DNA of 64,000 bases from Methanomassiliicoccaceae archaeon (GCA_963728405.1 CAVSJV010000002.1:64001-128000), one strand, 5' to 3'. Shown: positions 32,570-54,311, counted from the first letter of the stretch. A program made the numbers and translations. The notes: generated by a model from the letters alone, not told the origin.

Positions 32570-32603
32570 GGATGGTACATCCATCCATAAAAGAATTTAT
32601 AAT
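32570..32603 (+). promoter_or_regulatory. Palindrome GGATGG-TACAT-CCATCC, 9-nt spacer, TATA box (TTTATAAT) of corrinoid protein gene
   Basis: Perfect 6-5-6 inverted repeat at 32570-32586; TATA at 32596. Confidence 0.7.
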
Positions 32604-32658
32604 TAAGCAACTTAATGCAATGAGTAACTCTTTATTGTTTAGAGGAGGGAATCAGAGT

Positions 32659-33300
32659 ATGAGCAACGAGATACTTGATAAGCTAGCAGATGTCGTAGTT
32701 AAGGGAAAGATCAAGGAAGCCAAGCCCCTCGCGGAGCAGGCCTTGGCCGCCGGCGTCGACCCGAAAGTGATCATCTTTGACAGCCTAAGCAAGGCCATGG
32801 CCGTTGTAGGACAGAAGTATGAGAGCAAGCAGTACTACCTGCCCCAGGTTCTCCTGTCCGCCCAGACCATGTACCAAGCACTTGATGTCGTCCTCCCCAA
32901 GATGAAGGTGGACGCCAAGGTGAAGGCACCTGGAAAGGTCGTTATCGCGGTCGTCGAGGGAGATGTCCACGACATCGGAAAGAACATCGTGAAGGCCATG
33001 TTGACCGGCGCTGGTCTGACCATCTTTGACATGGGCCGTGATGTGCCTGTAAAGAACCTGGTCGAGAAGTGCAAGTCCGAGGGTGCCCAAATCCTTGCAA
33101 CCTCTACCCTGATGACCCCCACCTTGGCGGGTATGAAGGAGATCGAGAGGATCCTGAAGGAGGAGAACCTGAAGGGCAAGATCAAGACCATCATCGGCGG
33201 TGGGGCTACCTCCAAGGAGTTCTCTCAACAGATCGGTTCGGACGCCTGGGCGTACGACGCGGTCGAAGCAGTTTCTGTCGTCGACGGCCTGCTGAAGTAA
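32659..33300 (+). CDS. Methyltransferase cognate corrinoid protein (MtaC/MtbC-like)
   Basis: B12-cap domain, EGDVHDIGKNIV (DxHxxG), STLMT, IIGGG; RBS GGAGG. Confidence 0.95.
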   Translation: MSNEILDKLADVVVKGKIKEAKPLAEQALAAGVDPKVIIFDSLSKAMAVVGQKYESKQYYLPQVLLSAQTMYQALDVVLPKMKVDAKVKAPGKVVIAVVEGDVHDIGKNIVKAMLTGAGLTIFDMGRDVPVKNLVEKCKSEGAQILATSTLMTPTLAGMKEIERILKEENLKGKIKTIIGGGATSKEFSQQIGSDAWAYDAVEAVSVVDGLLK

Positions 33301-33327
33301 ACCATATGATAAACAAGAAGGACTCAG

Positions 33328-33357
33328 TCCTTCTTTTCCTTTGTTTTTTTATTTTTT
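33328..33357 (+). terminator. Long oligo-T terminator
   Basis: TCCTTCTTTTCCTTTGTTTTTTTTATTTTTT after corrinoid gene. Confidence 0.65.
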
Positions 33358-33515
33358 AACCCGAGGGCGAAGCATATCGTCCCATCACCCTCATCGATGG
33401 TCGGATAGGAGATGAACATAGAACTCCTAATGATAAGCAGAAGAGGGACTCATTGTCGAAAGATGCTCCGGCGGTCAGGGCGGACTGGACGCGGTCCGAT
33501 GAAGGGGGTGAGGCA

Positions 33516-34400
33516 ATGCAGAGTATCGAAGGTATCGAGATCCCGATCACCAATGGCAACAAGGTCCTCTTCCCTCGGGACGGCTACACCAAGAACGATC
33601 TGGTCCGTTACTATTCACTGATCGCGCCCGTTATGTTGCCGCATATGAGGGGCCGCCCGGTCTCCATGGTGCGGTATCCTGACGGCATCGATGGCAAGAG
33701 CTTCTTCCAAAAAGATACACCATCCTATTTTCCCAAATGGCTCCGGCGCATCACGGTCGAAAAGAAGGGCGGAACGGTCGACCATATACTTTGCGAGAAG
33801 GAAGCGGACCTAGTCTACCTGGCCAACCTCGCCTGCATCACCCCCCACCTCTGGCTGAGCAGGGCGGACCGTTTGGACCGCCCGGACCGAATGATCATCG
33901 ACCTGGACCCCGCCGACACGGACTTCAGTAAGGTGATGGCAGCCGCTCTATTGCTCCGGGACGAACTAGAGGGGCTCAACCTCTCCCCGTTCGTTATGAC
34001 GACGGGATCGAGGGGTATGCATGTGGTTGTTCCCTTGGACCGGTCAGCTTCTTTCGACGAGGTTAGGAGCTTCGCCCGTCAAGTGGCAGGTACGGTCATG
34101 GCCGGAAGGGAGGACGAGTACACGCTAGAGACCTCCAAGGCCGATCGGGGTGGGCGTTTGCTGATCGACACTTTCCGCAACTCCTATGGCCAGACCGGTG
34201 TCGCTCCTTACGCGATCAGGGCCAGGGATGGGGCGCCCGTGGCCACCCCTCTTATGTGGAAGGAGGTCGAGAGAGGTTTGTTCGGGCCCCACTCCTTCAA
34301 CATTGGGAACATATTCCAGCGGCTTAAGGAGACAGGGGATCCCTGGAAAGATATCGATGCTCAAGGGGGGTCCCTTCCCGATGCGACGGAATGGCCCTGA
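33516..34400 (+). CDS. Stand-alone LigD polymerase-domain (archaeo-eukaryotic primase) protein
   Basis: KVLFP..GYTK.DL..YY, RYPDGI.G.SFFQKD, DLDP, TTGSRGMH, APYAIRAR.GAPVATP. Confidence 0.9.
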   Translation: MQSIEGIEIPITNGNKVLFPRDGYTKNDLVRYYSLIAPVMLPHMRGRPVSMVRYPDGIDGKSFFQKDTPSYFPKWLRRITVEKKGGTVDHILCEKEADLVYLANLACITPHLWLSRADRLDRPDRMIIDLDPADTDFSKVMAAALLLRDELEGLNLSPFVMTTGSRGMHVVVPLDRSASFDEVRSFARQVAGTVMAGREDEYTLETSKADRGGRLLIDTFRNSYGQTGVAPYAIRARDGAPVATPLMWKEVERGLFGPHSFNIGNIFQRLKETGDPWKDIDAQGGSLPDATEWP

Positions 34401-34504
34401 CCCGGGGAGATCCCCCTGCATCTTCCTATGTTCTGATAATCTTGGTAGAACACTTATCTTCAGAGCCGTCCAATCCGCCGAACGATCGGGTGAGGTCCTT
34501 GGAT

Positions 34505-36473
34505 GTGAAGATCAAGAACGCTACCTATGGGCTGGGCATCGATACCGGTGGGACGTACACCGATGCGGCCATAGTCGATATGGCCACCCGGAAGGTAGTG
34601 GCTAAGGCCAAGTCCCCGACCACCCACTATGATCTTACAATAGGCCTCGGCGGGGCAGTGGATAACGTCCTGGCTGCCACGCACAGTTCGTCCGGAAGAA
34701 ATTGCCATGGTGGGGGTCTCCACCACGTTGGCCACTAACTCCATCCTGGAGGGAAGGGGTGGCAAGGTCGGTCTCATCTGCATAGGGTGGCGGCCTGACA
34801 AGGATTGGCCGACCGGGGCTACTGGGGAAGTGTTCATCGCCGGCGGCCACGATGTCCGGGGGCGGGAGCAGGCAGCCCTGGACATGAATGAGGTGGAGAA
34901 GGCCATCGCAGCCATTTCCGCCAGTTCCGATTCTCTGGTGGTCTCTTCTATATTCAGTGTTTACAACTCAGAGCACGAGGAAGCGGTCCGGAAAGCGGTG
35001 GCCAAGAGCAGTGGCTTGCCAGTAGTGGCAGGACATGAGCTTACCAGCGAGCTGGGCATCATGGAGCGGACCATCACCGCGGTCCTGAACGCTCGCCTAT
35101 TGCCGATCATCGCCCAGTTCCTTTCTGATGTTAAAGGTGCTCTCGCCCGGAGGAGCATAACCTCCCCCATAATGGTCTTCCGGGGTGACGGAACGCTCAT
35201 GAATCTCGATACCGCCCGAAGGCGCCCGGTCGATACCATCCTTTCTGGGCCTGCGGCAAGTGCGGTCGGCGGTCAGGTGCTGGCCGGAGTGGAGGACTGT
35301 ATCGTGGTGGACATGGGAGGGACATCGACAGACATCGCCTTCCTAAGGGGAGGATTTCCCCGGGTCTCCGAACTGGGCGCTTCCGTGGGGCAGTGGAGAA
35401 CTAGGGTGCAGGCAGTAGATGTTTGGACCTGCGCCCTGGGTGGGGACTCTGAGATCATCACGACCACTTCAGGGGAGGTTCGAATGTCCACCGACCGGGT
35501 GGTCCCTTTGTGTTTTGCCGCCCAGAGGTATCCGGGACTTCTCGAGAAGATCAAGGAGCGACAGGAGGTGCACTATTTTGCCGCGTATCCTAGGGATGCC
35601 GGTGAACTGACCCGGGCGGAACAGGAGGTCTTCGACCATCTCCAAAGGAGCGGGGCGAGCAGCATAAGCGAGCTCAGGGCGGCCTTGCCCGAGCTCTATA
35701 TGATCGATTCATATCTCGACTCCTTACGCAACCGCAACCTGGTGGTCGGAATCGGCCCTACCCCCACCGATGTCCTACATGCTGAGGGAATATATCTGCA
35801 GGGCAATGTCGAAGCATCGATCAAGGGGCTGGAATCCGTAGCTCTATCCCTGGGGCGGACCCTGGAGCAGATCGACAAGCTCGTCCTCAAGATGATCTCA
35901 GATCGGATCGCCCGCGAGGTGGTCAACAAACTTCTGATGGACGAGGTCAGCAATATCCCTGAGGGGGTCGCCGGCAACTATATGGTCGACATCGCTACCC
36001 GAGCCAGTCCCGCGGGTAATATGCAACTGGGCATGACCCTGGGCCTGCCCTTGGTCGGCATCGGTGCCCCGGCCCACGTGTTCCTACCGCCGTTGATGGA
36101 GCGGCTGGGCACGAAGGTGCTGATCCCGAGGGACCACGATGTGGGGAACGCCGTCGGAGCGGTCTGCAGCCAGGTGTCCATATCGGCCGAGGTCAGCGTA
36201 TTCCCTCGGAACTTTAAGTTCATATTATGCACCCCGTATGGTTCTCCGATCGAGTTCGAGCACATCAGTGAAGCAATTGCCCGAGGCAGAGATCTTGTCA
36301 CCAAGCACGTGAAGGATGAGGCCGCGAGGGCCGGGGCCATGAACGCTCGGGTGATCATCGATGTCATCGAGCGTAGGACCACCGCCGGATACCTCGTAGC
36401 GGGAGATATCATCACTCAGGTCGATATAAAAGCCAGAGCCGTGGGGAAGCCAACAATCGTTGACAAAAATTGA
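34505..36473 (+). CDS. Hydantoinase A/oxoprolinase-family ATPase with no B-subunit partner (extra A near 34685)
   Basis: GIDTGGTYTD, STTLATN, LSGPAAS, DMGGTSTD, GGDS, TPTD, GNAVGA. Confidence 0.88.
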
Positions 36474-36483
36474 CGAAAACTAA

Positions 36484-36534
36484 TTATATAGTAACTCCAA
36501 TTGCGAATCAAGATATTCGTAGAGTTATAGGAGG
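36484..36534 (+). promoter_or_regulatory. Promoter of MtaA-like gene: TATA box, nested inverted repeat, RBS
   Basis: TTATATA 36484-36490; TAACTC..TGCGAAT/ATTCGTA-GAGTTA; AGGAGG 36529-36534. Confidence 0.55.
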
Positions 36535-36540
36535 CAATTT

Positions 36541-37539
36541 ATGACACCCAAAGAGAGGTTCATGGCAGCGCTTTCCCGCAAGGAGCTAGACCGCCCCGCC
36601 GTTGGATGCGTTACCCAGTCCGTGACCGTTGATCAGATGGATGCTGTAGGCGTTCACTGGCCTGAGGCACACACCGACCCACAGATGATGGCAACCCTAG
36701 GTGCCGCCGGGCACAAGGTGTTCGGGTTCGAGAACGCCAGGATCCCCTTCTGTTTGACCGTTGAAGCGGAGATCTTTGGAGCCACCGTGGATTTGGGCAA
36801 GGTCGACAGGACCCCCATGGTCAAGAAGCACGCCTTCGATGCTGACGCCACCCCTACCTTCCCTAAGGACTTCGCTTCCATGGGCAGGGTAAAGACCGTC
36901 ATCGAGGCCACCAAGCTGCTGAAGCAGCAGGTCGGCAATGAGCTCCCCATCGTCGTCGGGACCACCGGCCCCCTGACCATCGCTGGTCACCTGGTCGGCA
37001 CTGAGAACCTGCTACTGATGATGATCACCGACCCCGAGGCCGTGCACAAGTTCATCAAGGTCTCAACCGAGATGGAGAAGGCCTACCTGAAGGCCCTCGT
37101 GGCCGCCGGTGCCGATGTCATCGCCATGAGCGACCCGTCCGCCTCCACTGACATGCTGTCCGGAGAGATGTTCGACGAGTTCGCGAAGCCCTACATCAAG
37201 ACCTGCTGGGAAGGAGCCGAGGGTGCCAAGAGGATTCTGCACATCTGCGGTGACACCACCATCCTGCTCGACCACATGATTGCCACCGGTTGCGAGGCGC
37301 TCTCCATCGAGGAGAAGGTCGACCCCTTCAAGGCAGTCGAGCTCGTCAACGGCCGTGCTGCCCTCGTCGGTAACATGGGTGTCGTTCGCCCGCTGCTCCA
37401 GGGAACCCCTGAGGACTGCCGCGAGCACGCTATCAAGATCAAGCAGGCCGGCTTCAACGTCGTCGCTCCCGGATGCGGACTCGCTGCCCGTGTACCCAAG
37501 GCCAACATCGAGGCCATGGTCAAGGCAATCAAGGGCTGA
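36541..37539 (+). CDS. mtaA: Methylcobamide:CoM methyltransferase (MtaA/MtbA family)
   Basis: PFCLTVEAE, DPSAS, Zn ligands LHICG and APGCG. Confidence 0.92.
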   Translation: MTPKERFMAALSRKELDRPAVGCVTQSVTVDQMDAVGVHWPEAHTDPQMMATLGAAGHKVFGFENARIPFCLTVEAEIFGATVDLGKVDRTPMVKKHAFDADATPTFPKDFASMGRVKTVIEATKLLKQQVGNELPIVVGTTGPLTIAGHLVGTENLLLMMITDPEAVHKFIKVSTEMEKAYLKALVAAGADVIAMSDPSASTDMLSGEMFDEFAKPYIKTCWEGAEGAKRILHICGDTTILLDHMIATGCEALSIEEKVDPFKAVELVNGRAALVGNMGVVRPLLQGTPEDCREHAIKIKQAGFNVVAPGCGLAARVPKANIEAMVKAIKG

Positions 37540-37619
37540 AACGGTCCACCCGCGCAACAGGAAGTTGAAAACCCTTTCCAATTCTCAATTTTTTAAAATA
37601 GAATCGATTTGAAGAGGTT

Positions 37620-38657
37620 TCAGTACCGCCCATACTTCTCGCATGCTTCGCGAACTCTGATGATGTTCTCTTGAGGGCTCTTGAACGGTATCTCGCTACC
37701 GGGAGCAATGATCAGGCCTGGATTCTTCCCATAGAGGTCGAGGGCCGAACGCACCTTGCCTTCCACATCCTCGGGGGTCCTCTTGAAGATGACCTCCTGG
37801 TGGTTGATCCCGGACATCATACACACCTTGCCGCGGTATTTTTGAATTAGGCCGGGCAGGTCTACGAAGTCATTGTTGAAGTGGGTGCAGCTGGCTCCTG
37901 CGGAGATCTGCTGATCAAGGTACGGGAACTGGGAGTCGTTATGCACGATGGTCCTGATGCCCAGGCTCCTGAACTTCTCAAGGACCTGGTGAAGATATGC
38001 GATGTCGTAGGCGTCGCACATCTCCGGAGATACCAGGGTTCCGGACGCGCTGCTGTCGTCAAGGAACGTGGCTTCCAGACCAAGGGCAGCGATCCTCTCC
38101 CCATACATGATCTCGGACCCCATTGCCACTTTGATCATACGGTGCACGATGCTCGGGTCGTTGATAGTGTCCATCATCAGGTTCTCATAGCCCCTGAGTT
38201 CGGTGGCCACGAAGAACGGCGAGATAACGCTGCCTATGACTGCGACCTCCTTTCCGATCTTCTCCTGCAGGATGGCCCCGGCCTTGATGGGTACGGACCA
38301 GAACGTGTCCTTCATTGGGTCTACGACCTCCAACTTGTCCACATCTGCAGGTTCCTGTACGACATACTTGTCTATCCGCGGATAGAAGTCGCGCTCAGGG
38401 AACTTCCAGGTGCTTCCTAGCGCTTGCGCTTCGGTCAGCAGGTCCCCCCAGCCAATCATTACATTATCATAGCCGAAGAGCTCGTGGGACTTCATGCAGA
38501 TCTTGGCGAAGGCGGCGGGATCATGGAACCCTTCCCTCATGGTCAGTCCAGCCACCTGGAGGACGTGCTTGGCTCCCCCCAGTTGTTGGTAGAATACCGG
38601 CACCCGGTCTGGCGTTTCCAGCCTCAAAGAGGACTGAAACCTCTCCCTGGAGTTCAT
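37620..38657 (-). CDS. UroD/MtaA-superfamily protein lacking canonical Zn cysteines
   Basis: ERF..L....PDRVPV, EAQALG, SPF, ELRG.ENLM; IVHND and APGSEIP in place of HIC and APGC. Confidence 0.85.
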   Translation of the reverse strand: MNSRERFQSSLRLETPDRVPVFYQQLGGAKHVLQVAGLTMREGFHDPAAFAKICMKSHELFGYDNVMIGWGDLLTEAQALGSTWKFPERDFYPRIDKYVVQEPADVDKLEVVDPMKDTFWSVPIKAGAILQEKIGKEVAVIGSVISPFFVATELRGYENLMMDTINDPSIVHRMIKVAMGSEIMYGERIAALGLEATFLDDSSASGTLVSPEMCDAYDIAYLHQVLEKFRSLGIRTIVHNDSQFPYLDQQISAGASCTHFNNDFVDLPGLIQKYRGKVCMMSGINHQEVIFKRTPEDVEGKVRSALDLYGKNPGLIIAPGSEIPFKSPQENIIRVREACEKYGRY

Positions 38658-38795
38658 GCTAATTCATATCCGCTCGTGGATAAATCTAAGTTTCGTAACT
38701 ACGCTGGATAATGCGGTCATCTGTCGTTTCTCGATCGCCCAATTCCGTGTGATTCTATTTATAGCCCATTCCCAATTTCAATCCGGCGACTTAAC

Positions 38796-40436
38796 ATGGG
38801 TTACGGCATAGCACTGGACGTTGGAACTAGCGGATATCGCAGCCATCTCGTTGACCTCTCCAAGAATGGTAAGATAATCTCTACCGCGATCACCATGCGC
38901 CACCCGCTTCCTGGCGCCAACATCATGGACCACCTGCACTTCTGGATCGAGAATGGTTCGGAGGTCGGCCATAGGATAGTCATGGACACGGTCAGCCACC
39001 TGATCGAGATCCACGGTGTCGACACCAAGAAGATCGACCGGTTGGCCGTTTGCGGCAACCCTGCCCAAGTCTCCATGTTCGAAGGCATCGAGGTAAGGGA
39101 TCTGGCTTATGCCGGACAATCTCTCTTGAATCGCCTGAAGGTAAAGGTTCCCGACCGCCGGGCTAAGGTCATAACTGCCGGGGAAATCGGTCTCACCGCG
39201 ATGAGGCCCGAGGCTGCTGTGGTAATTCCCCCATCCATTCGCCACGAGATCGGGGCCGACGCGCTGGCCATGATCATCAAGTCCCACATGTTGGAAAAGA
39301 AGGAGACCTGCATGGTCACCGACTACGGCACCAACGCCGAGATGGGCCTATATCACGACGGTGAACTATACACTGGCTCGGCAGCGGCAGGGCCGGCCAT
39401 GGAGGGGCAGGCCATTCATCACGGCATGCTGGCCGCACCGTTCGCTATTTCCGACTTCAACTTCGCCGAAGATGGGTTCTGGAGCAACTATGTCCTTTCC
39501 GATGTCCTAAAACCAGTGGAAGGCATGAGGGTCAACCCCTCCACCAGCGCCACTTGCCTAGTCAATGATATCCAGGCGAGGGGCATCACCGGCACCGGCG
39601 TCGTCGCCGCTGTGGCATTGGGACTGGAGTCCGGTCTCATCGAGCCCCCATACATAAGGACCAGGGACAAGGTCCTTCACTTCCAGAATGGTATCGACTT
39701 TGGCGAGGCGGACCTCATCGAGGCCGGAAAGGCCATGGGGGCCATCCGGGCCGGTCACCGTACCCTCATCGAGGAGGTCGGGATCGACGACCTGGATGTC
39801 AAGACCATGTATCTGGCTGGTGCATCGGGTACCTATGTCGATCCGATTAAGGCACAGACCGTGGGGATGGTCCCCCGGGTCATTGACCACACCGTGCAGG
39901 TAGGCAACACCTCGCTCATGATGGCGTACGACCTCCTGGTCAAGGATGAGGCCGTGGATGATATGCAGAGGGTGGCCGACTCCATCGCCTCCAAGCACAT
40001 CATGTTCGCCACCAGCAAGATCTTCGAGGACATGTATGTCAATGAGATCGCCTACTGGGTGGAAGGAATGCCTCTTGATATGTACAACGAAGTGCTCATA
40101 AGCTCCGGCCACAAGCCATTGCCCCCGATCGTCAGGCCGAAGACGACCCAGCGTATCGTCAGCTCGGATATCCCGGTCCTCGGCGATAAGGGCCTCAGGA
40201 TCCTGGACAATGTCGGCGTTTACCTGATGGGCAGCTTCGAAGGCTGCATCGGTTGTAAGAAGTGTGAGAAAGAGTGCCCCGAACGCGCCCTTACGGTGCT
40301 GGAAGGCGGTCTCCACGGATTCACCATAAATATCGCCACCGAACATTGCCTTGGGACCGCGTGCAAGAAATGCGAGTCGGTCTGCCCCCAAAAGGTCTAT
40401 CGGTTCAGTGATCTGAAGGTCACTCAGAGAGCCTAA
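38796..40436 (+). CDS. ramA: Corrinoid protein reductive activase RamA
   Basis: ALDVGTSGYR, RHPLPGANIMDH, HEIGADALA, DYGTNAEM, C-terminal 2x[4Fe-4S] motifs. Confidence 0.93.
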   Translation: MGYGIALDVGTSGYRSHLVDLSKNGKIISTAITMRHPLPGANIMDHLHFWIENGSEVGHRIVMDTVSHLIEIHGVDTKKIDRLAVCGNPAQVSMFEGIEVRDLAYAGQSLLNRLKVKVPDRRAKVITAGEIGLTAMRPEAAVVIPPSIRHEIGADALAMIIKSHMLEKKETCMVTDYGTNAEMGLYHDGELYTGSAAAGPAMEGQAIHHGMLAAPFAISDFNFAEDGFWSNYVLSDVLKPVEGMRVNPSTSATCLVNDIQARGITGTGVVAAVALGLESGLIEPPYIRTRDKVLHFQNGIDFGEADLIEAGKAMGAIRAGHRTLIEEVGIDDLDVKTMYLAGASGTYVDPIKAQTVGMVPRVIDHTVQVGNTSLMMAYDLLVKDEAVDDMQRVADSIASKHIMFATSKIFEDMYVNEIAYWVEGMPLDMYNEVLISSGHKPLPPIVRPKTTQRIVSSDIPVLGDKGLRILDNVGVYLMGSFEGCIGCKKCEKECPERALTVLEGGLHGFTINIATEHCLGTACKKCESVCPQKVYRFSDLKVTQRA

Positions 40437-40452
40437 GGGTCGTATCTCAAAA

Positions 40453-40504
40453 GGGACATCGGCGCTGTCATTATCCGACGCCGATCCCTCCATTTTCCTT
40501 TTTT
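40453..40504 (+). terminator. Hairpin plus T-tract after ramA
   Basis: ATCGGCG...CGCCGAT stem followed by TTTTCCTTTTTT. Confidence 0.5.
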
Positions 40505-40685
40505 AATGTTGCCGAGTGGGGCGAAAAGGGCTTCCTCGAGCATTCCGATGGGGCCGCGGTCGAACCGATTTGATGAATTGTTCTTCGGTAACGATTTAAT
40601 ACAGATTTAGTATATAGTATGAAACGAAGTTCACAAATTAGCCTGCTATCGGTCTGGTTTTGGAACATTGTTGCAAGAGGAAGGC

Positions 40686-41159
40686 ATGGACGATACCGAC
40701 CTGAATATCCTGCAGATCCTTAGGGAAAATTCCCGTGACAGCCTGGGGAAGATCTCAGAGCAGCTGGGAATATCCAAGGCTACGGTCTCCCGTCGTTTGA
40801 CCCGGATGGAACAGGAAGGTTACATTTCTGGCTATTCCATAGCCACCAACCCAGCCCGGTTCGGTCTCATGAAGGGAATTATCTCCCTGCAGGTAGTTGG
40901 CACTGCTGTGAACGGGGTCATCGAGCAGCTCAAAGAGAACAAGGAGATCGAGTCGGTCATGAGGGTGTTTGGTGACCACGGTCTGATCTGCGAGGTGTAT
41001 GCTAGCAGCGTTGACTCCCTCTATGCCCTCATCCAGGATCGGATCTTGAAGATACCTAATGTCCGCAACGTGGAAGTGGACATCGTCATCGATCGTATGT
41101 CCATCAATCCGGATGCCGAGTTCGACATGGCCCGCTCCAAGATCGAAGGGCGGAGTTGA
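40686..41159 (+). CDS. Lrp/AsnC-family transcriptional regulator
   Basis: MDDTDLNILQIL.ENSR.S...IS..LGIS.ATV.RR, C-terminal RAM domain. Confidence 0.9.
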   Translation: MDDTDLNILQILRENSRDSLGKISEQLGISKATVSRRLTRMEQEGYISGYSIATNPARFGLMKGIISLQVVGTAVNGVIEQLKENKEIESVMRVFGDHGLICEVYASSVDSLYALIQDRILKIPNVRNVEVDIVIDRMSINPDAEFDMARSKIEGRS

Positions 41160-41993: not shown

Positions 41994-42108
41994 AAGGACA
42001 CCCGGCCGCTCAGGAAGAAACGGTCCGCCCTATATTTTTGTTTGCCAATCCGGCCAGGGCCGGGGCGTTTCGAGAAGTTTATTAGCGTTAGAGCGCATGG
42101 CCGCTCCC

Positions 42109-43312: not shown

Positions 43313-43953
43313 GGCCAGTGATCTTCCTTGGCCCCAGCCTTCCCCGGGAGGAGGCCATGGCCGTGTTGGACGCCGACTATCGTCCTCCTGTAAAAAGGGG
43401 CGACCTTGCGTCGATCCCCACAGAGGTCGAGGTCGTGGGCATTGTGGACGGCGTCCTGCTGAATGATGCGGCGGTCGGGCATCGGGAGATATTGGCACTG
43501 CTCGATAGGGGGGTGAAAGTCCTCGGGGCAGGTAGCATGGGAGCTTTGCGAGCGGCGGAATTGGCCGATTTCGGCATGGTAGGTATCGGCCGGATATTCG
43601 AGGAATATGTCTCCGGACGTGTAGAAGGCGATGACGAGGTCGTCCTATCTTATGACCCTTTCACTCTACTCCCCCTCTCCGAGCCGCTCATCAATATCCG
43701 ATTAAACCTGGAAAAAGCTAGAGAAAAGGGGGCGATCGGTCCCGAGACCGAAAAAGCCTTATTGATCGAAATGAAGACGGTATTCTACCCTCGAAGAAAC
43801 TTCTCACTGTTAATTGAAATGGCAGAGAGAATATCGGAAAAAAAAGAGGCTCAAAAATTGAAAAATTTCCTTCGAGACGAGGCCGAAGATTTCAAGCAAA
43901 AAGACGCACTTTTTTTACTAAAGGCCGTTAAACAAATCACTTGTATTTGTTAA
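43309..43953 (+). CDS. tfuA: TfuA, YcaO partner (start CTG 43309 or GTG 43318)
   Basis: IFLGPSL, PPVKRGD, DGV, HREI, SMGALRAAEL, DDEV. Confidence 0.93.
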   Translation: MRPVIFLGPSLPREEAMAVLDADYRPPVKRGDLASIPTEVEVVGIVDGVLLNDAAVGHREILALLDRGVKVLGAGSMGALRAAELADFGMVGIGRIFEEYVSGRVEGDDEVVLSYDPFTLLPLSEPLINIRLNLEKAREKGAIGPETEKALLIEMKTVFYPRRNFSLLIEMAERISEKKEAQKLKNFLRDEAEDFKQKDALFLLKAVKQITCIC

Positions 43954-44021
43954 AAATTAACCAATGTTAAGAAAAATTGGAACATGCTGGCTACTTTCAA
44001 AAAATCACGATTGTTTACGCT

Positions 44022-44054
44022 GGTTGGATTATCCATCCAGCAGCATGTTTATAT
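44022..44054 (+). promoter_or_regulatory. Palindrome GGTTGG-ATTAT-CCATCC, 9-nt spacer, TATA box (TTTATAT) of mcr operon
   Basis: Site 44022-44038 flanked by GCT/AGC; TATA at 44048. Confidence 0.7.
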
Positions 44055-44074
44055 GCCCTTCTCTACTTACTAGG

Positions 44075-44196
44075 CTCCGCAAGGGGATTCGATTTTCATC
44101 GTAAGGGTCTAAGCTCAAGCGATGGGAATCAAGAAATATTTAGCTCGGTCGGGGGGACTCTGCCGGGTGAGGAAAAGATATCAAGGAGGTAGAAAT
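44075..44196 (+). promoter_or_regulatory. Structured mcrB 5' leader with RBS AGGAGGT
   Basis: Three hairpins (44075-44086, 44091-44130, 44143-44168); RBS 44184-44190. Confidence 0.5.
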
Positions 44197-45516
44197 TTGG
44201 CGAAATACAAGGACAAGATAGACTTGTACGACGACCGGGGTAAGCTCATCGAGAAGGATGTACCCCTCGAGGCTATTAGCCCGTTGAACAACCCCGCCGT
44301 ACAGAAGATTGCATCCTTGGCTAAGAGGACCATCGCCGTGGACATGACCGGACTTGAGAAGTCTCTCAAGAGCGGACGTGTCGGCGGTGGCTACATCAAG
44401 GGCAAGGAGATCAACGCCGATGTCGTCGCGAACGCAGAGAAGCTCGCGAAGAGGGTCCGGGATATCCTGAAGGTCGAAAAGGATGATGACACTGATGTAA
44501 GGGTCATCATGGAAGGGAAGAGGATGATCGTCATCGTTCCCTCCGGTAGACTCGACGCCGGTGTTGAATACACCACCGGTTTCACCGCTGCAGCCGCTGC
44601 GGTCACCCAGGCCGTCATTGACGAATTCGACGTAGACATGTTCCGCGCGAACATGGTAAAGGGTGCTGTTTGGGGCAGATATCCCCAGAGTTTGAACTTC
44701 CTGGGAGCTAACCTGAAGTCCATTCTCGAAGTGCCGCAGAACAACGAAGGCGCCGGTTATGCCCTGAGAAATATCATGGCGAACCACCTGGTTGCTCTGT
44801 CGAGCAAGAATTCGATGAACGCAGCTGCTCTATCCTCGATCTTTGAGCAGACCGCTATGTTCGAGCTCGGTGACGCTGTCGGGCCGTTCGAGAGGTACCA
44901 CCTCTTGGGCCTAGCCTACCAGGGACTGAACGCGAACAACATGGTCGTTGACCTCGTAAAGGAGAATGGCAAGACCGGAACCGTCGGCACTGTCGTCGAG
45001 TCCCTGGTCTCCCGTGCCATCGAAGACAAGGTCATCAAGGTCAAGGAGAAGCTGCCGTCCGGATACAAGGTGTACACCACCAACGACTTCCCGTTGTGGA
45101 ACGCGTACGCTGCGGCCGGTATGCTTGCTGCCAACATGGTCAACATTGGTGCCGCCAGGGCTTCCCAGGCTGTTCCTGCGACCATCCTGTACTATAACGA
45201 CCTGCTCGAGCATGAGACTGGACTGCCAAGCGTTGACTTTGGGCGTGCGATGGGTGTTGCCGTCGGTATGTCTTTCTTCAGCCACTCTATCTATGGAGGC
45301 GGCGGGCCTGGTCTGTTCCACGGTAACCACGTCGTGACCAAGCACTCCAAGGGCTTTGTCATCCCGTGTATCGCCGCAGCCTGCTCTCTGGATGCCGGTA
45401 CTCAGATGTTCTCCCCGGAGAACACCTCGTCCCTCGTTAGGGATGTATTCGGCGACATTCCCGAGTTCAGGGCCCCGCTGAAGGCCGTCGGTAAGGAGGC
45501 AAAGAAGCTGAAGTAA
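44197..45516 (+). CDS. mcrB: Methyl-coenzyme M reductase beta subunit (TTG start)
   Basis: [43 protein letters not shown]. Confidence 0.98.
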
Positions 45517-45532
45517 GCGGTCTGGTGGCTTG

Positions 45533-45955
45533 ATGAACAGTACTGACAAACCTGAAGCAGTTCCGTTGCCGGAGATTCTAATATTCCCTAACAGGTTGCT
45601 CAAGGCCGAAACGACCGAGACGCTCCTGAACAAGGTATATGAGGTCCCCCACGTAAGGCAGGTCAACATCGCTGGCGAAGGATTGCCGGCAGTGCTTGGC
45701 TCTGGCCCCGGTAAGGGACTTCCGAACGAGCACCCTGAACGCAGGGTAATCACAGTGAAAGGAAAGCAAGTGGAGCTGCGTCTGCTCGTGGGACGGGTGT
45801 TTGTCGAGATCGACGACATTGATCACGTGCAGCAGGCACTGGAGGACATCGAGAAAATTTGTATCGAGGTCCTTCCGTTCGGCTTCAATCTTGAAGTAGG
45901 CCGGTACTCGAAGTACAAGCCAACTGTGACCGATTACGCAAAAGGCAAGAGGTAA
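45533..45955 (+). CDS. mcrD: MCR operon protein D
   Basis: [30 protein letters not shown]. Confidence 0.94.
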
Positions 45956-45960
45956 TTACT

Positions 45961-46734
45961 ATGGCATACCAGAGACAATTCTATCCCGGATCGAGCCAGG
46001 TCGCCCAGAACAGGCGCCGCTACATGGACCCTTCCCAGAAGCTGAAGAAGCTCAGGGACATCTCCATGGATGACGTCGTTAGGATCATGGGCCACAGGGC
46101 TCCTGGAGAAGATTACAAGAGCATCCACCCGCCACTGGAGGAGGGCAACGAGCCGGATGACCTCATCCGCAAGTTGGTCGTCCCCATCGAGGGTGCAAAG
46201 AAGGGAGACAGAATCAGATACATCCAGTTCACCGACTCGGTGTACTTCGCTCCGATGGTACCGTACCTGAGGGCCTGGATGTACATGACCAGGATGCGCG
46301 GCTTCGACACCGGTACCCTTTCCGGCAGACAGATCATCGAAATGAGGGAGAGGGACCTCGAGAAGGTAGCGAAGGAGCTCATCGACAACGAGACCTTTGA
46401 CCCCGCAAAGACCGGTATCAGAGGCGCCACTGTGCACGGGCACGCCTGCAGGCTTGACGAGAACGGCCTGATGTTCGATGCCTGGCAGAGGTACCGCTGG
46501 AACGCCAAGAAGGGAGAGGTCGAGTACACGAAGGACCAGGTAGCTATCCCACTGGACAAGCCTATCTCTGTAGGCAAGCCACTGTCCGATGCTGACCTGA
46601 AGAAGATGACCACCATCTTCAGAGTAGATGGCGTTGACATGAGGGACGACCCTGAAGTCATGGCCTTAAACCTGAGGATCCACAGGCTCAGGACCCTATG
46701 CGGGTTCCAGTCCTACGCGGTCAAGGGGGAGTAA
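45961..46734 (+). CDS. mcrG: Methyl-coenzyme M reductase gamma subunit
   Basis: [38 protein letters not shown]. Confidence 0.98.
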
Positions 46735-46737
46735 ACA

Positions 46738-48402
46738 ATGGCAAAGGAAAAGGACAAGTTGTTCTTGGACGCAATGAAGAAGAAGTTCAAGGAGGCCCCG
46801 ACTGAGGTCAACACTCACTACTACACCTTTGGTGGCTGGAAGCAGTCCAAGAGGAAGAGAGAGTGGGTTGAGCAGGCCAACAAGATCGCCAAGGCCCGTG
46901 GCATCCCGATGATGAACCAGGACATTGGTGTTCCTCTCGGCCAGCGTGTCTTGATGCCCTACCAGCTGTCTCACACCGACATCTACGCTGAGGCTGATGA
47001 CCTGCACTTCGTCAACAACGCCGCTATGCAGCAGGCGTGGGATGATATCCGCAGGACCGTCATCTCTGGTCTGGACACCGCTCACCAGGTTATCGAGAAG
47101 AGGCTGGGCAAGGAAGTTACTCCTGAGACCATCAACCACTACCTCGAGACCGTGAACCACGCTATGCCCGGTGGCGCAGTCGTGCAGGAGCACATGGCCG
47201 AGTGCAGCCCCGCCCTAACCGCGGACTGCTATGTGAAGGTCTTCTCCGGCGATGACGAGCTCATCAGCCAGATCGACAAGCGCTTCGTGATCGACATCAA
47301 CAAGGAGTTCCCGAAGGACCAGGCCAAGCAGCTGAAGGACGCTATTGGCAAGTCCCTGTGGCAGAAGGTCGCGTGCCCGACCATCGTCGGCCGTGTCTGC
47401 GACGGCGGTACTATGTCCCGGTGGAGCGCCATGCAGATCTCGATGTCGTTCATCAGCGCGTACCGGCTAGCTGCCGGTGAGGCCGCCATCGCGGACTTCG
47501 CCTTCGCTGCCAAGCACGCGTCGGTCGTAGAGATGGGTACCATGATGCCCGCCAGGCGTGCACGTGGCCCCAACGAGCCCGGTGGAATTCCATTCGGGTT
47601 CCTGGCCGATATGGTCCAGTCCTACCGTACCCACCCTGACGACCCTGGCAGGGCTGCCCTGGAAACCGTCGCTCTCGGCGCGGTCATCCTGGACCAGATC
47701 TACCTCGGGTCGTACATGTCCGGCGGTGTCGGATTCACCCAGTACGCTACTGCGGCCTACACCGACGACATCCTGGAAGACTACACCTACTGGGCCCTTG
47801 ACCTGATCAAGACCAAGTATGGTGGGCTGTGCAAGAGCAAGCCTTCCATGGAACTGATGGACAAGCTCGGAACTGAGGTCAACTCCTATGCGCTGGAAAT
47901 GTATGAGAGGTACCCGTCTGCGATGGAAGCCCACTTCGGTGGCTCCCAGCGTGCGACCGTTGCCGCCGCCGCCACTGGTATCGCTTGCGCGATGGCCACT
48001 GGTAACGCCGACTTCGGTGTCAACGGCTGGTATCTGTCAATGATGCAGCACAAGGAAAGGCACGGCCGCCTAGGCTTCTACGGGTACGACCTGCAGGACC
48101 AATGCGGTGCAGCCAACTCGTTCTCCTACAGGAGCGACGAGGGCCTGCCCTTCGAGCTCAGGGGCCCGAACTACCCCAACTACGCCATGAACGTCGGTCA
48201 CCTGTCCGGATACGCCGGCATAGCGGCAGCCTCTCACGCGGCCCGCGGCGACGCTTTCGCCTGCAGCCCGCTGATCAAGGTCGCCTTCGCCGACAAGAAC
48301 ATGCCGTTCGACTTCGGAAACATCACGAAGGAGTTCGGCCGTGGCGCCCTCAGGGAGTTCATGCCTGCTGGCGAAAGGTCCGTAATCATCCCCGCTCAGT
48401 GA
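46738..48402 (+). CDS. mcrA: Methyl-coenzyme M reductase alpha subunit
   Basis: [55 protein letters not shown]. Confidence 0.99.
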
Positions 48403-48406
48403 GCCC

Positions 48407-48685
48407 ATGATCGTCGGTGACATCGTAAAGTACAGAAACACCGGGACGGTAGGAAAGATAGTGGAAATCATGGAAGAAGGAAAGGTGGTCTGGGCACTCC
48501 TGGACACCTCAAACCTCTTCTATGATTCGACCGCTCTCGATCTGGCCAATCCGGACGAGTACCACGGTGCCGCCGAACGTGAAAAGGGCTTGAGGGACCA
48601 ACTGGAGGACATCAACCGTCTCCGCGAGGAAATGGCGGAGATGGCCGAAAAAGCCTCCAAGATAACTCCCTCAGGCGCGGGTTAG
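48407..48685 (+). CDS. DUF2098-family methanogen protein
   Basis: VGDIVKYRNTGTVGKI...W..LD...L.Y; directly after mcrA. Confidence 0.82.
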   Translation: MIVGDIVKYRNTGTVGKIVEIMEEGKVVWALLDTSNLFYDSTALDLANPDEYHGAAEREKGLRDQLEDINRLREEMAEMAEKASKITPSGAG

Positions 48686-48851
48686 GACCTTCGGGCTAAC
48701 TAACAAACCCCTTCCCTTCACATTTTTCTAGATTCTTTGAGGGGCGGAGCCATCGCACTAAGGGGCCATGGCTGAAACATGTTGTCTATGAAATTAGAAT
48801 AGAGTGTAATTTATTATTTGCTTTTTTATTAATCCGCTCTCGAGAATAAAC

Positions 48852-49492
48852 ATGGATGAGGGTCAGCGAACTGAAGGTAATGGGGGCAAGGGAAAGGGGA
48901 GAACCATCATCTCGATCATCGCCGTCGTGGCCGTAGTGGCCATAATACATGACCGCGGTCATTCTTTCCGGCCTGAACAGCACAGCGGGATCGAATGATA
49001 AAGACAGGCTGATAACCAAAGCGAACGCGGACCTGGTCATCGGCCTCAATGATCTGTCTCCGGGGTGGGTGGTCGATATCACCTACAGGCCGGATACCGA
49101 TGTGCACGAAGATAATGTCACAGCAGGCGTCGCCAGGTACAACCACACCACCTCCACCGACCCCCTCATGATGGAGTTCGTCACCATACAGATTTATCGG
49201 GTCAACACAACAGAGAATGCCACTGATGTGTTCGCTCAGATCTTCGCGAACGCTGGTTGGCACATGTGGCAGGCCGTGCCCCTTACCACCGTCGGGAACT
49301 GTCAGTGTCGGTGACGAAGGAGTCCTCTGCAGCGGCAATTGGACCGGCAGCCACGCCGCGATCAAGACCCTGGTGTTCAGGGAGAACAACGTCATTGTGC
49401 TCATGGTCTACGAGGCCACTGAGAACATGAACCTGTCCGACGAGGCCGTGATCGAGCTGGCTACTAAGCAGGACGCCAAACTATTGAGCTGA
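48852..49492 (+). CDS. Membrane-anchored extracellular protein (1-nt insertions near 48948 and 49295)
   Basis: MDEGQRT...RTIISIIAVVAVVAII joins MTAVIL..; C-terminal VGDEG...FRENNVIV..V..LATKQ. Confidence 0.6.
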
Positions 49493-49578
49493 ACGACGAG
49501 GGGGTGGCTATGGCCACCCTGCCTTCTCTTATCAAGTTCTCGGCGTTGTCAGATATACCTTCGCCCGGTGAGATATGC

Positions 49579-50136
49579 TCAGCAGATTTTCTCATCGGCG
49601 TCAAAGCCGATGAGTATCGATGCCAGCTTGGGGTCGTCCTCGAAACCATGCATCTCGCGGAGCATCATATCGGCCGGAGCGGAAGGAGAGCATGAGACAA
49701 CGTTCTTCATCCCCATCTCGGTGACCTCGGGGAACGATACTGGAGGCATGACAAAGAATTCCCGCTCTTTGCCCTTCCTTTCAGGATACATGACGAACTC
49801 CTCGGACAGCCAGATGATCTCTTCCTTGTTGGTGGCGAGGAACTCCTTCATCCGGTTGGGCAAGACCTCTTCTCCCAGGACGATACCGTCATCGGAGAGG
49901 AGCATGACTGTGGGCTCGGGCGGGGGCCGAAAGCTCGCTTTCTTGATGATGCAAACTACATACTTGCGTTCGAGGCACTTCTCCACGCCCATATTGATGA
50001 CAGGGATCCCGAGTGTTGCCTTGATGTCCTTCTCGATGTCCACTATCTTGGAACGGCAGGAATCGCTGAGAGGAAAGACATGTATCGTGCCCTTCATCTC
50101 CTTGAGCCTGGCAACCACGTCGCTCATCTTAGCCAT
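49579..50136 (-). CDS. Uncharacterised protein, paralog of 54312-54878
   Basis: Co-linear similarity: NMGV..CL.R, GIVLGEEV.P, LSEEFVMYP, V.SCSPS...D, LIGFD. Confidence 0.8.
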   Translation of the reverse strand: MAKMSDVVARLKEMKGTIHVFPLSDSCRSKIVDIEKDIKATLGIPVINMGVEKCLERKYVVCIIKKASFRPPPEPTVMLLSDDGIVLGEEVLPNRMKEFLATNKEEIIWLSEEFVMYPERKGKEREFFVMPPVSFPEVTEMGMKNVVSCSPSAPADMMLREMHGFEDDPKLASILIGFDADEKIC

Positions 50137-50257
50137 ATATGCGTGGTGAGAGCATAAGTTGTAATAAATCTAACCACCGTCCGCAAGAACGAAGTACCAG
50201 AAAGTACGGCCCAAAAGAGAGCTAGGATTTTATATCGCTTCAGCCGGTGCCCCCGAC

Positions 50258-50560
50258 ATGAGCCTTTCCCTGATCGCCAAGCAGCAGCCCCAAGCTATAA
50301 CAAAGCTATACAAGCTGAAGCATGAGGTCTTCCAGGACGGGGCCCTGACGTCCAAAGAAAAGGAGATCATCGCCGTATCCCTGTCCTGCGTGCTCAAATG
50401 CGAGACTTGTCTGGAAACTCATGTCAAGTCAGCCAAGGACCTCGGTGCGACAAGGGACGAGCTTAGAGAGGCCATGCTTGTGGCGATGTACCTGGCCGGT
50501 CCGACCGCGTTAGTGTGGAGCCCCAAGATCGATGAGGCTCTGGCCGATGACCTTGAATGA
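50258..50560 (+). CDS. Carboxymuconolactone decarboxylase/AhpD-like protein
   Basis: DGALTSKEKEIIA, CETCLETH, GATRDEL.EA. Confidence 0.88.
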   Translation: MSLSLIAKQQPQAITKLYKLKHEVFQDGALTSKEKEIIAVSLSCVLKCETCLETHVKSAKDLGATRDELREAMLVAMYLAGPTALVWSPKIDEALADDLE

Positions 50561-50574
50561 CGAAGGTCACCCGT

Positions 50575-50916
50575 TCAGCAATCGAAGTCAAATTTAACGC
50601 TTCTCTTCAGTCCGAACCCCGCGGCGGCCTCGGCCGACTTGATCAGGGCCGAAGGAATGGGACATGCGGAATGAGCCAGAACCTTGCCGCAGGCCTCGTA
50701 GACCGGATTGGCGGAGAACGGCATTTTGAGCGCGTCGAATGGGCTGAGATCGTCCGTCAGTTCGTCCCTGAGCTTCTTGACATGAGGGCAATCGGAGGAG
50801 ATGTCGAAGTGGATGGAGCCATCAACGTAGGTGGCGGTTATCCTGGTCCGAAACCTGCAGACGCCGGGGTCCACAGTTAAGCATACCTGTCCGGAACCTT
50901 CATTGACCGAGGACAT
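50575..50916 (-). CDS. Small Cys/His-conserved protein (DUF6951-like)
   Basis: VDPGVCRF.T.I, I.SDCPH, HSACPIP..LIK.AE. Confidence 0.65.
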   Translation of the reverse strand: MSSVNEGSGQVCLTVDPGVCRFRTRITATYVDGSIHFDISSDCPHVKKLRDELTDDLSPFDALKMPFSANPVYEACGKVLAHSACPIPSALIKSAEAAAGFGLKRSVKFDFDC

Positions 50917-50981
50917 GGAGGGGCAATGCGGCATGGCGCTTCTTAACTCTTTCTGATTTCCGTTCAGGGTTCTCCAGGCAC

Positions 50982-51959
50982 CTAGTAGCCGGTCTGGTCC
51001 TTTCTAGTGCGGGAGATCATCTCGAACATACCGCCTTTAGTGATGTCCACGATGCCGAACACGGCCACCGCCTCCTTCTTTCTGATGATCGGTACGACCA
51101 CCACTGGTACGCCACGATACGGTCCGGAAGGTGATATCTTCCTGATCACCATGCTTTTCTTCAGCGATTCCTCGAGGACCGGGCCCGTGTAGTTGGTGTC
51201 TAACACCTCGCCATCCTCGCACCTGACCCCGTAGTTGTTCTTGCTTCGCATAGTGACCGGGAGTCTTCCGACCAGTTCGTGGACTGCCAGCGCAAGGCAC
51301 TTTAGGTCCTCGGCCTCGGTGTCAGGGCTTATTAGGCCCGATGGAGAGCCCTCCTTCCAGCAGGGTTTGGACTGATCGCTCAGAGAGAGGCCAGCTGTGA
51401 CCGCCCCTTTCTCGGCGACCTCGTATGAGTTCGCCGTCCCGATGATCACCACATCGTTCTCCTCGATGGAGAAGGCCGAGCGGATGGGTGCCAACCTGAC
51501 CTGGTCCGGTTCGGCCTTGTCGCCGGGAAAGAAGAGCTTGCCGTTCTTGGCTATAAGGGTGGTCGCCCCGACCGCCCCGGCCCGAACAGCCTCGTCCCTT
51601 TGCTCATAGCCCGTCCCGATCCGGTCGGCCATTCCTTTGACCAGGACCGCACAATCCTGAGTGGATATCGTAAGGCCTTCGATCTTTACAGGGGCGGCGG
51701 TGATGCCAGAAGTACGGAACTGTTTGATTCCCCGGTCGGTGAGCACGGCGCCCAGCTTAGTGTTCTCCACCGAACCCTCTCGGATCATCTTATCCAGGAT
51801 GGTTCGGGTGCTTCCTTCGCCGATCCCCAATGTCTGGGACAGGGCCTTGCGGCCTATCGGTCCCTTTTCATTGATGATGTCGTAGGTCTTCCAAACGTGG
51901 AACAAGGAGAACTTGGGGGTAGGCCCCCCTCCAGAATAGGCCTGGAACTTAAGAACCAT
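50982..51959 (-). CDS. Winged-HTH transcriptional regulator with DUF4443-like and C-terminal DUF2111-like domains
   Basis: GGPTPKFS..H, PIGRKALSQTLGIGEGSTRT HTH, EQRDEAVRAGAVGAT, LPVTMRS...GVR.EDG.V.D.NYTGPVLE...GPYRGVPV. Confidence 0.85.
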   Translation of the reverse strand: MVLKFQAYSGGGPTPKFSLFHVWKTYDIINEKGPIGRKALSQTLGIGEGSTRTILDKMIREGSVENTKLGAVLTDRGIKQFRTSGITAAPVKIEGLTISTQDCAVLVKGMADRIGTGYEQRDEAVRAGAVGATTLIAKNGKLFFPGDKAEPDQVRLAPIRSAFSIEENDVVIIGTANSYEVAEKGAVTAGLSLSDQSKPCWKEGSPSGLISPDTEAEDLKCLALAVHELVGRLPVTMRSKNNYGVRCEDGEVLDTNYTGPVLEESLKKSMVIRKISPSGPYRGVPVVVVPIIRKKEAVAVFGIVDITKGGMFEMISRTRKDQTGY

Positions 51960-51969
51960 CTAGGGGGTT

Positions 51970-51999
51970 GGATGGTCTATCCATCCTATATCCTTTTCG
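51970..51999 (-). promoter_or_regulatory. Palindrome GGATGG-TCTAT-CCATCC between the regulator's TATA-like element and start codon
   Basis: Perfect 6-5-6 repeat at 51970-51986; minus strand reads CGAAAAGGATATA-site-10 nt-ATG. Confidence 0.7.
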
Positions 52000-54305: not shown

Positions 54306-54311
54306 GCTCTA

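Follow-up and report, generated by a model that had tools for sequence, protein, structure and literature searches.

Genes and features of the locus

We analysed 64,000 nt of one strand of a Methanomassiliicoccaceae archaeon genome (GCA_963728405.1, CAVSJV010000002.1:64001-128000; this whole stretch is called the window, and positions are counted from its first letter). Between positions 32,570 and 51,999, the window carries a corrinoid protein gene, the mcr operon for methyl-coenzyme M reductase (MCR) and a gene for a winged helix-turn-helix (wHTH) protein, the candidate regulator of this study, and the promoters of all three share a 17-bp palindrome. A prior reading of this DNA from its letters alone (the sequence-only reading) had taken the palindrome for an operator through which the wHTH protein represses itself and co-activates MCR and the corrinoid gene. 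The features are as follows, with scores from the position weight matrix (PWM) described below; BRE stands for the B recognition element and ORF for open reading frame.

32570-32586, no strand: operator copy 1, GGATGG-TACAT-CCATCC, in the corrinoid gene promoter; PWM score 25.1
32596-32601, plus strand: TTTATA box, 9 nt after operator 1, with a purine-rich ATAAAAG stretch (BRE-like) before the box
32659-33300, plus strand: corrinoid protein gene (Pfam B12-binding_2 and B12-binding)
44003-44017, no strand: AT-rich near-palindrome AATCACGATTGTTTA, a conserved second element 4 nt upstream of operator 2
44022-44038, no strand: operator copy 2, GGTTGG-ATTAT-CCATCC, in the mcrB promoter; PWM score 25.4
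44048-44053, plus strand: TTTATA box of the mcr promoter, 9 nt past operator 2
44197-48402, plus strand: mcr operon, with mcrB at 44197-45516 (TTG start; McrB by Pfam) and three co-directional ORFs
50982-51959, minus strand: candidate regulator of 325 aa, with wHTH (PH0730-like_N), DUF4443 and DUF2111 by Pfam
51966-51986, no strand: operator copy 3 in the regulator promoter, a double site (51970-51986 exact and 51966-51982 with one mismatch)
51987-51994, minus strand: TATA-like element of the regulator promoter, directly abutting the operator

When the pattern GGWTGG-N5-CCATCC was searched across the window, exactly three GG(A/T)TGG-N5-CCATCC sites were found, at 32570-32586 (GGATGGTACATCCATCC), 44022-44038 (GGTTGGATTATCCATCC) and 51970-51986 (GGATGGTCTATCCATCC). 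Among 100 dinucleotide shuffles, which averaged 0.05 matches and never exceeded 2, none reached the five strand-matches observed. These are the sites which the sequence-only reading had described at 32570, 44022 and 51970, and the flanking sequence bears out its further points that all three spacers end in AT, that operators 1 and 2 lie 9 nt from TTTATA (32596 and 44048), and that the third site lies between a TATA-like element and the ATG of the wHTH gene. Its statement that there was no other match with up to one mismatch failed, since a one-mismatch search adds 22832 and 51966. The match at 51966 overlaps with site 3, so that the two together form a 21-bp double site (51966-51986). Positions 7 and 11 were always A or T in true sites, which gives the motif GGATGG-W-N3-W-CCATCC with the core GGATG-N7-CATCC.

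At the targets of this genome, 8-10 nt separate the operator from the TATA box, so that the site lies directly upstream of BRE and TATA as in promoters of the Ptr2 type. The three ORFs that follow mcrB, up to 48402, are conserved at 74-95% in relatives. In addition, a stretch of the mcrB 5' leader (GCAAGGGGATTCGATTTTCATC, about 44079-44101) is conserved throughout the order, including family f7 (families of relatives are designated f1 to f7) and genomes without the regulator; an Rfam search of the leader gave no match at E <= 1.

Placement of the palindrome in the whole genome

The whole assembly (2.73 Mb in 18 contigs) was searched with the exact pattern and with a palindromised PWM built from 47 sites of relatives. 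Four exact sites were found, the three in the window and one more at contig C17:102140, and all four are intergenic and lie in methanogenesis promoters, namely those of mcrB, two corrinoid units and the regulator. The fourth site is 107 nt upstream of an operon encoding a corrinoid protein, a URO-D-type methyltransferase, a small ORF, a second corrinoid protein and CobW, and a TATA-like box on the gene strand begins 8 nt past it. The PWM scores of the four sites were 25.1-25.7, and the next-best match, inside a gene, scored 18.6. Genome-wide there were 47 PWM matches of at least 10, of which 30 were genic. The motif is thus rare and every strong match lies in a promoter, which does not fit a sequence that is frequent without promoter bias.

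The sequence-only reading had argued from rarity by count, and this argument did not stand up. A genome-wide scan of spacers from N0 to N20 gave 0-5 sites per spacer, with 4 for N5 where about 1.5 are expected from hexamer frequencies, and enrichment by count was therefore dropped. Since the N5 count is no higher than that of other spacers, the significance of the motif comes from position and conservation; it is placement, not raw number, that makes it remarkable.

Four corrinoid genes could be called in this genome: two head the units that bear a site, one is internal to such a unit and one has no site. No operator was found upstream of any of the five MtaA-like genes of this genome. A weaker site outside the window, at C17:10557 (GGTTGGATGATACATCC, PWM 18.0), lies 107 nt upstream of an AA_permease_2 (amino-acid-permease-family) gene, and about 1.5 kb on, past opposite-strand ORFs, the same locus also has a URO-D methyltransferase gene and an MtrA-like gene; it is possibly a fifth member of the regulon.

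The corrinoid protein gene in the window scored 197 bits against NCBIfam TIGR02370, below the 215-bit cut-off. A LigD-type primase-polymerase gene (33453-34400) lies directly 3' of it, so that the corrinoid gene appears to be monocistronic, without an adjoining cognate methyltransferase. Between the two target promoters (36541-40433) lie a gene for MtaA (NF004889, 366 bits), a second MtaA/CmuA-like gene on the opposite strand and a gene for RamA, the corrinoid reductive activase (TIGR04270, 714 bits). None of these three genes has the operator.

Conservation of the palindrome in related genomes

In 41 related genomes, we searched for GGWTGG-N5-CCAWCC, with the pattern read backwards as the control. 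The pattern was present in 35 of the 41 genomes with 110 sites summed, compared to 4 sites for the reversed control. We examined 74 of the 110 sites, in 70 loci, by annotating the flanking ORFs with Pfam and classifying them by hand. Fifteen sites were upstream of McrB, 23 were upstream of corrinoid proteins (5 of these divergent from a DUF169 gene), and 10 were at the start of the regulator, one of which (L015) was recognised from an N-terminus read across a contig end. The rest comprised 1 site upstream of a URO-D methyltransferase, 7 uncertain sites and 18 in coding or GC-rich DNA, which were taken as chance. Five further genomes of family f3 gave 16 sites, with 5 at McrB (in all five genomes), 6 at corrinoid genes, 2 uncertain and 3 taken as chance. 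In both samples together (90 sites), 20 were at mcrB, 29 at corrinoid genes and 10 at the regulator promoter.

As an unbiased test of mcrB, the best PWM match within 300 nt upstream was taken in 30 genomes. In 23 of them it was at the same position (20 exact and 3 with one mismatch), while 4 had only a half-site and 3 had none. The spacing from the operator to TTATA was invariant, with 10 nt in all 15 mcrB promoters of relatives. The orthologue of the window's corrinoid gene in the congeners G007 and G009 (91-92% identical) has the same site 71 nt upstream, and most corrinoid promoters of relatives show the arrangement of operator, BRE-like stretch and TATA box found at 32570-32601; in genus g3, the distance from operator to TATA at corrinoid promoters is 15-20 nt. 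Between promoter classes, only the 17-mer and the TATA box are common, and the operator keeps its position across families with regulators that are only 40-65% identical. The AT-rich near-palindrome beside operator 2 is a conserved feature of mcrB promoters in most families, where it lies 3-5 bp before the operator, and is absent from corrinoid promoters.

The promoter of the candidate regulator

On the minus strand, the exact site of operator 3 lies 10 nt before the ATG (51959) of the gene 50982-51959, and the TATA-like GATATA is directly upstream of it. By its position relative to the TATA-like box and the ATG, the operator is therefore of the type found in autoregulated repressors, between TATA and the gene's own start. 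The same was seen in relatives, in which TATA-like boxes (TTTATA, TTTAAA and ATATTT types) stand directly before the palindrome, and the palindrome ends a few bases before the ATG or on it, which implies a nearly leaderless transcript. A sequence within one mismatch of GGATG-N7-CATCC was found at 29 of 30 regulator promoters, where the one miss is truncated at a contig end. In f7 and f2, which are the most distant families, it was found at 16 of 20. The exceptions among these 20 loci were L067, L069 and L078, which have other GGAT-type inverted repeats, and L077, which has none. Conservation in orthologous promoters, which the sequence-only reading had named as a check, thus holds at mcrB (23/30), at the regulator (29/30 and 16/20) and at the corrinoid gene (two of two regulator-bearing congeners).

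The hexamers are 5 nt apart in the regulator promoters of family f1 and 9 nt apart in families f3 and f6 (GGATGGAT-N5-ATCCATCC). The latter form reads as two overlapping 17-mers offset by 4 bp, like the double site in the window.

The regulator gene was divergent from atwA in all 43 loci in which both starts were found. The intergenic region between them varied from 102 to 754 nt while the operator stayed beside the regulator gene, so that the site belongs to the core promoter of the regulator and not to that of atwA. The atwA operon was also considered as a direct target of the operator; this is unlikely, as the distance from operator to atwA is not conserved.

A PH0730-like protein with a C-terminal DUF2111 domain

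The candidate regulator belongs to the PH0730-like wHTH/DUF4443 proteins by Pfam, with 35.8 bits for PF22167 (cut-off 30.2) and 96.5 bits for PF14544 (cut-off 27), and residues 226-307 match PF09884 (DUF2111) with 114.5 bits (cut-off 27). Neither the whole protein nor its C-terminal part had any NCBIfam match, and hence none to TIGR03291 (methanogenesis marker protein 17). An AlphaFold (AF2) model was built from 45 homologues, with a predicted local distance difference test (pLDDT) score of 84.6. It shows a winged helix (residues 19-83), an alpha/beta domain (86-195), a disordered linker (196-206) and the DUF2111 domain (216-323). The sequence GEGSTRT at the start of the third helix, the recognition-helix region, is invariant or nearly so among the 45 homologues.

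The best match among solved structures was PH0730 of Pyrococcus horikoshii (2P8T), followed by IclR-type regulators, GAF domains and the DNA-binding domain of CggR on DNA. The alignment with PH0730 covers residues 14-190 at E 1.1e-11, and Foldseek gave E 2.8e-10 with a template modelling (TM) score of 0.77 on the target and a root-mean-square deviation of 2.9 over 188 columns; the two proteins share the wHTH and the alpha/beta domain. In contrast to the regulator, PH0730 has 200 aa and no DUF2111. In the literature searched, to the extent that its text was accessible, no description of a function or operator of PH0730 was found, and its sole mention (PMC6316755) is unrelated.

The window's genome (G000) also has a short PH0730-like paralogue with wHTH and DUF4443 (C2:194190-194750). 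Zinc-dependent alcohol dehydrogenase (ADH) genes carry another palindrome, TTGGAT-N5-ATCCAA, which is related to the operator but distinct from it. In G000 it is found outside the window, twice in each of two duplicated promoters (C9:2660 and C17:43902), and in G009 (L026, C1:346455) it is found once, 12 nt before the ADH start. It may be the site of the short paralogue.

The DUF2111 domain folded alone with pLDDT 90.5. The lone fold matched only PAS, GAF, Cache and IclR ligand-binding domains, with Z-scores of 6-8.3, which are in the range of common arrangements, and Foldseek with this domain found nothing at E <= 0.001. The sequence-only reading had supposed that the C-terminal domain senses a ligand; the possible PAS/GAF-like fold of the predicted model would agree with this. 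A two-copy model of the regulator scored 0.55, compared to 0.00 for the best of three controls. It thereby passed a mark that 20 of 30 proteins known as pairs from solved structures, and 1 of 23 known as single chains, also reached; its runs agree on at least 45% of the contacts, and the partner pLDDT is at least 75. The predicted interface is that of a symmetric homodimer and, by the model's own confidence, runs through DUF2111 residues 208-319.

DUF2111 and the MCR activation operon

The regulator is divergent from the MCR activation operon, which was annotated with NCBIfam as follows.

52081-60301, plus strand: MCR activation operon, divergent from the regulator
52081-53706, plus strand: A2 (atwA), TIGR03269, 779 bits
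Starting at 53703, 54457, 56747 and 57145, plus strand: mcrC, mmp3 (two ORFs), mmp6 and mmp5
Starting at 57576, 58805 and 59363, plus strand: mmp15, mmp17 (58805-59170) and mmp7

Mmp3 is encoded by two abutting ORFs (54457-55779 and 55779-56747) which match the N- and C-halves of TIGR03268; the first is extended at its N-terminus by about 188 aa.

Within the phylum, DUF2111 (PF09884) was found in all 17 Methanomassiliicoccales and in none of 134 other genomes, and M. jannaschii and Methanosarcina acetivorans were the only ones of 14 control genomes in which it turned up. A DUF2111 search against 1.84 billion representatives returned only 77 clusters, which include forms of about 320 aa with DUF2111 as the C-terminal domain, as in the window's fusion, and stand-alone forms of 110-140 aa. 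Among the lineages searched, the domain was found only in those that bear MCR. One cluster representative, P0133, has the reverse order DUF2111-wHTH-DUF4443, which points to an independent fusion of the two parts, and P0121 is a tandem of two DUF2111 domains, which fits with pairing of DUF2111.

Stand-alone DUF2111 genes were found at 80 loci in Methanobacteriaceae, Methanofastidiosia-like archaea, Methanomicrobiales, Methanosarcinales, Methanoperedens, Methanotrichaceae and Methanomethylicota. At 52 of these loci (Methanobacteriaceae and Methanofastidiosia-like), DUF2111 lies between mmp6 and mmp5 of the MCR-activation cluster, in the order Mmp3-Mmp6-DUF2111-Mmp5-Mmp15-Mmp17. In the window, nothing separates mmp6 from mmp5, and the regulator's C-terminus is the one DUF2111 of the genome. 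The stand-alone proteins share the domain with the regulator at 40-46% identity; unlike the regulator, they have only 110-140 aa and no DNA-binding part. A stand-alone DUF2111 gene adjoining a PH0730-like gene was looked for in other methanogens and found at none of the 80 loci.

Two identities for DUF2111 were considered and rejected. It is not Mmp17, which is a DUF2113 protein and has its own gene in the window. Nor does it appear as a subunit of the purified MCR activation complex in the subunit list available from the 2025 Nature paper (PMC12176620), which names McrC, Mmp7, Mmp17, Mmp3, A2 and DUF2098. The accessible part of a 2026 preprint on M. acetivorans (10.64898/2026.03.18.712670) lists A2 and Mmp5, 6, 17, 7, 3 and 15 and calls the operon constitutive. 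Taken together, the phyletic pattern and the gene order would be consistent with the tentative idea that DUF2111 is a methanogen-specific module of the MCR-activation machinery which moved from the mmp operon into a DNA-binding fusion in Methanomassiliicoccales, and which could let the cell read the MCR-activation state or a cofactor (coenzyme M, coenzyme B, heterodisulfide or F430) and set the transcription of mcr and the corrinoid genes accordingly.

Congeners without the regulator

Of the 121 genomes searched in the order, 119 were found to have the regulator, and the other two are 66-67% complete. In the near-complete genomes of three congeners (G004, G005 and G008, the last a single contig), only the short wHTH and DUF4443 paralogue was found. 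Their synteny is kept from ycaO to the genes just before the regulator, and the regulator and atwA are not there. Their mcrB promoters have kept the TATA box and the conserved leader and have lost the left half-site, and the AT-rich near-palindrome was lost together with the operator. They also have an 86-88% identical orthologue of the window's corrinoid gene without the site, and none of their 11 corrinoid paralogues has a site. These three congeners, having lost the regulator and the sites together, are a natural experiment.

Proposed mechanism and the evidence against it

A methanogenesis regulator not described so far probably binds the palindrome. We favour, with reasonable confidence, the 50982-51959 protein as its binder, with dimer binding, autorepression and activation of mcrB and the corrinoid genes; the self-repression and co-activation put forward in the sequence-only reading are supported to a very slightly lesser degree. 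The binder, the sign of regulation and the signal are what we infer from the genomic observations above. The protein would bind the 17-bp palindrome as a dimer held together by DUF2111. At its own promoter the operator fills the space from TATA to the start, and binding there would shut off its own transcription. At mcrB and the two corrinoid promoters, the operator ends 8-10 nt upstream of TATA, abutting BRE, with its centre expected at about -48, and a protein bound there would stand where an archaeal activator helps the TATA-binding protein (TBP) and transcription factor B (TFB) to bind; from this position, the protein would most likely raise the transcription of MCR and the corrinoid genes together. 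DUF2111 probably receives the signal, which could be a metabolite or cofactor of methanogenesis or a protein of the MCR-activation machinery.

Several observations weigh against this proposal. Genome-wide, the pattern is no more frequent than expected by chance, and the Z-scores of the sensor-like fold are those of common arrangements. Genus g3 (four genomes) keeps the regulator and has only the left half-site at mcrB. In family f7, 12 of 13 mcrB loci are without the site by eye, though most f7 genomes keep the regulator. The five complete f7 genomes contain 61 GGATG-N7-CATCC sites, and in a biased sample of 18 regions (19 sites), chosen partly by spacer composition, only two sites were upstream of corrinoid (MtaC-like) genes, both in G097, so that clear targets were seen in only one of the five. 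The three congeners without the regulator are probably one clade, and their co-loss therefore amounts to about one evolutionary event. The orthologue of an Lrp gene, introduced below, is missing from the same three genomes, and the co-loss thus does not separate the regulator from Lrp as the binder. G005, in which the regulator was not found, keeps one intact site with activator-type geometry (L024, C6:102-118). This site is 102 nt from a contig edge and points off it, and it is either a relic or a sign that the regulator is in unassembled DNA. Finally, the regulator-less relatives keep a near-identical TATA region at mcrB, which shows that the site is not needed for a working mcrB promoter.

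Other explanations of the palindrome

The weakest step is the sign of regulation at the targets, read as it is from position alone. Given binding by the regulator, it could instead repress everywhere, occluding BRE at the targets and shutting off the regulon. The footprint of a protein at a site 8-10 nt from TATA could cover BRE, and the regulator-less relatives, which must still make MCR, do so from much the same core promoter, which leaves room for repression of this kind. In contrast, most known archaeal repressors bind on TATA/BRE or downstream of it, and sites centred near -48 are typical of archaeal activators such as Ptr2. We therefore regard repression at the targets as possible but somewhat unlikely.

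The palindrome could also be bound by an Lrp linked to mcr, which would act as a Ptr2-like activator, with the wHTH-DUF2111 gene merely one of its targets.

40668-41156, plus strand: Lrp/AsnC-family regulator gene, rival candidate binder (NCBIfam LrpA-like matches below cut-offs)

In families f1 to f6, an orthologue of this gene lies in synteny about 2 kb before mcrB. G004, G005 and G008, which lost the sites, do not have it, and neither do 7 of 10 f7 genomes checked (G029, G033 and the five complete ones), which are without the mcrB site; in the five complete genomes, only an Lrp paralogue of 28-30% identity was found. In addition, if the core is read as GATGG-N5-CCATC, it would fit the 5+5+5 layout of Lrp sites. 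However, there is no exact site at the Lrp promoter in the window or, by coordinates, in G025, G026, G028, G035 and G036. The five complete Lrp-less f7 genomes keep the palindrome at the regulator promoter, and the Lrp-less G097 has it upstream of two MtaC-like genes. The mcrB-specific AT-rich near-palindrome (44003-44017) is a candidate Lrp site and would be a more natural one than the palindrome. Taken together, these results make Lrp an unlikely binder.

Binding by another factor, either the short PH0730-like paralogue or some other protein, we consider very unlikely. The paralogue has the same wHTH family and is present throughout the order, and the related palindrome at the zinc-dependent ADH genes shows that similar operators exist. 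Against this, G004, G005 and G008 have lost the sites and still have the paralogue, and the site is tied to the core promoter of the long form in every family.

That the palindrome arose by chance, or is a promoter fragment copied between genes with no factor involved, is practically negligible: although the count in this genome does not exceed expectation, there are 110 sites against 4 in the control in 41 genomes, promoter classes have nothing but the 17-mer and the TATA box in common, and the position is held across families with regulators as divergent as described above.

Implications and comparison with known systems

In the literature searched, which left most subscription journals outside, we found no account of a factor acting on mcr transcription by way of a defined operator, and no description of this regulator, its operator, or a function for DUF2111, DUF4443 or PH0730-like proteins. 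If the proposal is true, the 50982-51959 protein would be the first dedicated transcriptional regulator of MCR, and DUF2111, DUF4443 and PH0730-like proteins would have a first function. It joins a sharply delimited 17-bp operator to one named candidate protein and to a coherent regulon of few members (MCR, corrinoid methyl carriers and the regulator), and it does so for methanogens of an order that is frequent in guts, the rumen and wetlands. An orphan domain found only in MCR-bearing archaea would thereby be linked to the recently solved MCR-activation system.

The proposed regulator resembles known systems in part. With IclR-type one-component regulators it would share the plan of a wHTH followed by GAF-like sensor domains (Z 6-7.4 at the level of domains), and IclR chains appeared in both fold searches; the likeness is one of plan and not of membership, as there is no sequence or Pfam match to the IclR family and the whole-chain TM score is only 0.17-0.25. 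Ptr2 of Methanocaldococcus jannaschii, an activator of the Lrp family, likewise has a palindromic site just upstream of BRE/TATA and differs in being of another protein family. MDR1, Phr and TrmB are archaeal autorepressors with operators between TATA and the start, the same place as operator 3, and belong to families unrelated to the regulator. The Msr regulators of Methanosarcina (ArsR-type with DUF1724) are dedicated to corrinoid/methyltransferase operons in a methylotrophic methanogen; the regulator has no Pfam match to the Msr family, and we know of no Msr regulator that controls mcr. As proposed, the system is a one-component archaeal regulator, which is a known kind; its novelty lies in a sensor module taken over from the MCR-activation genes and in a regulon that includes mcr.

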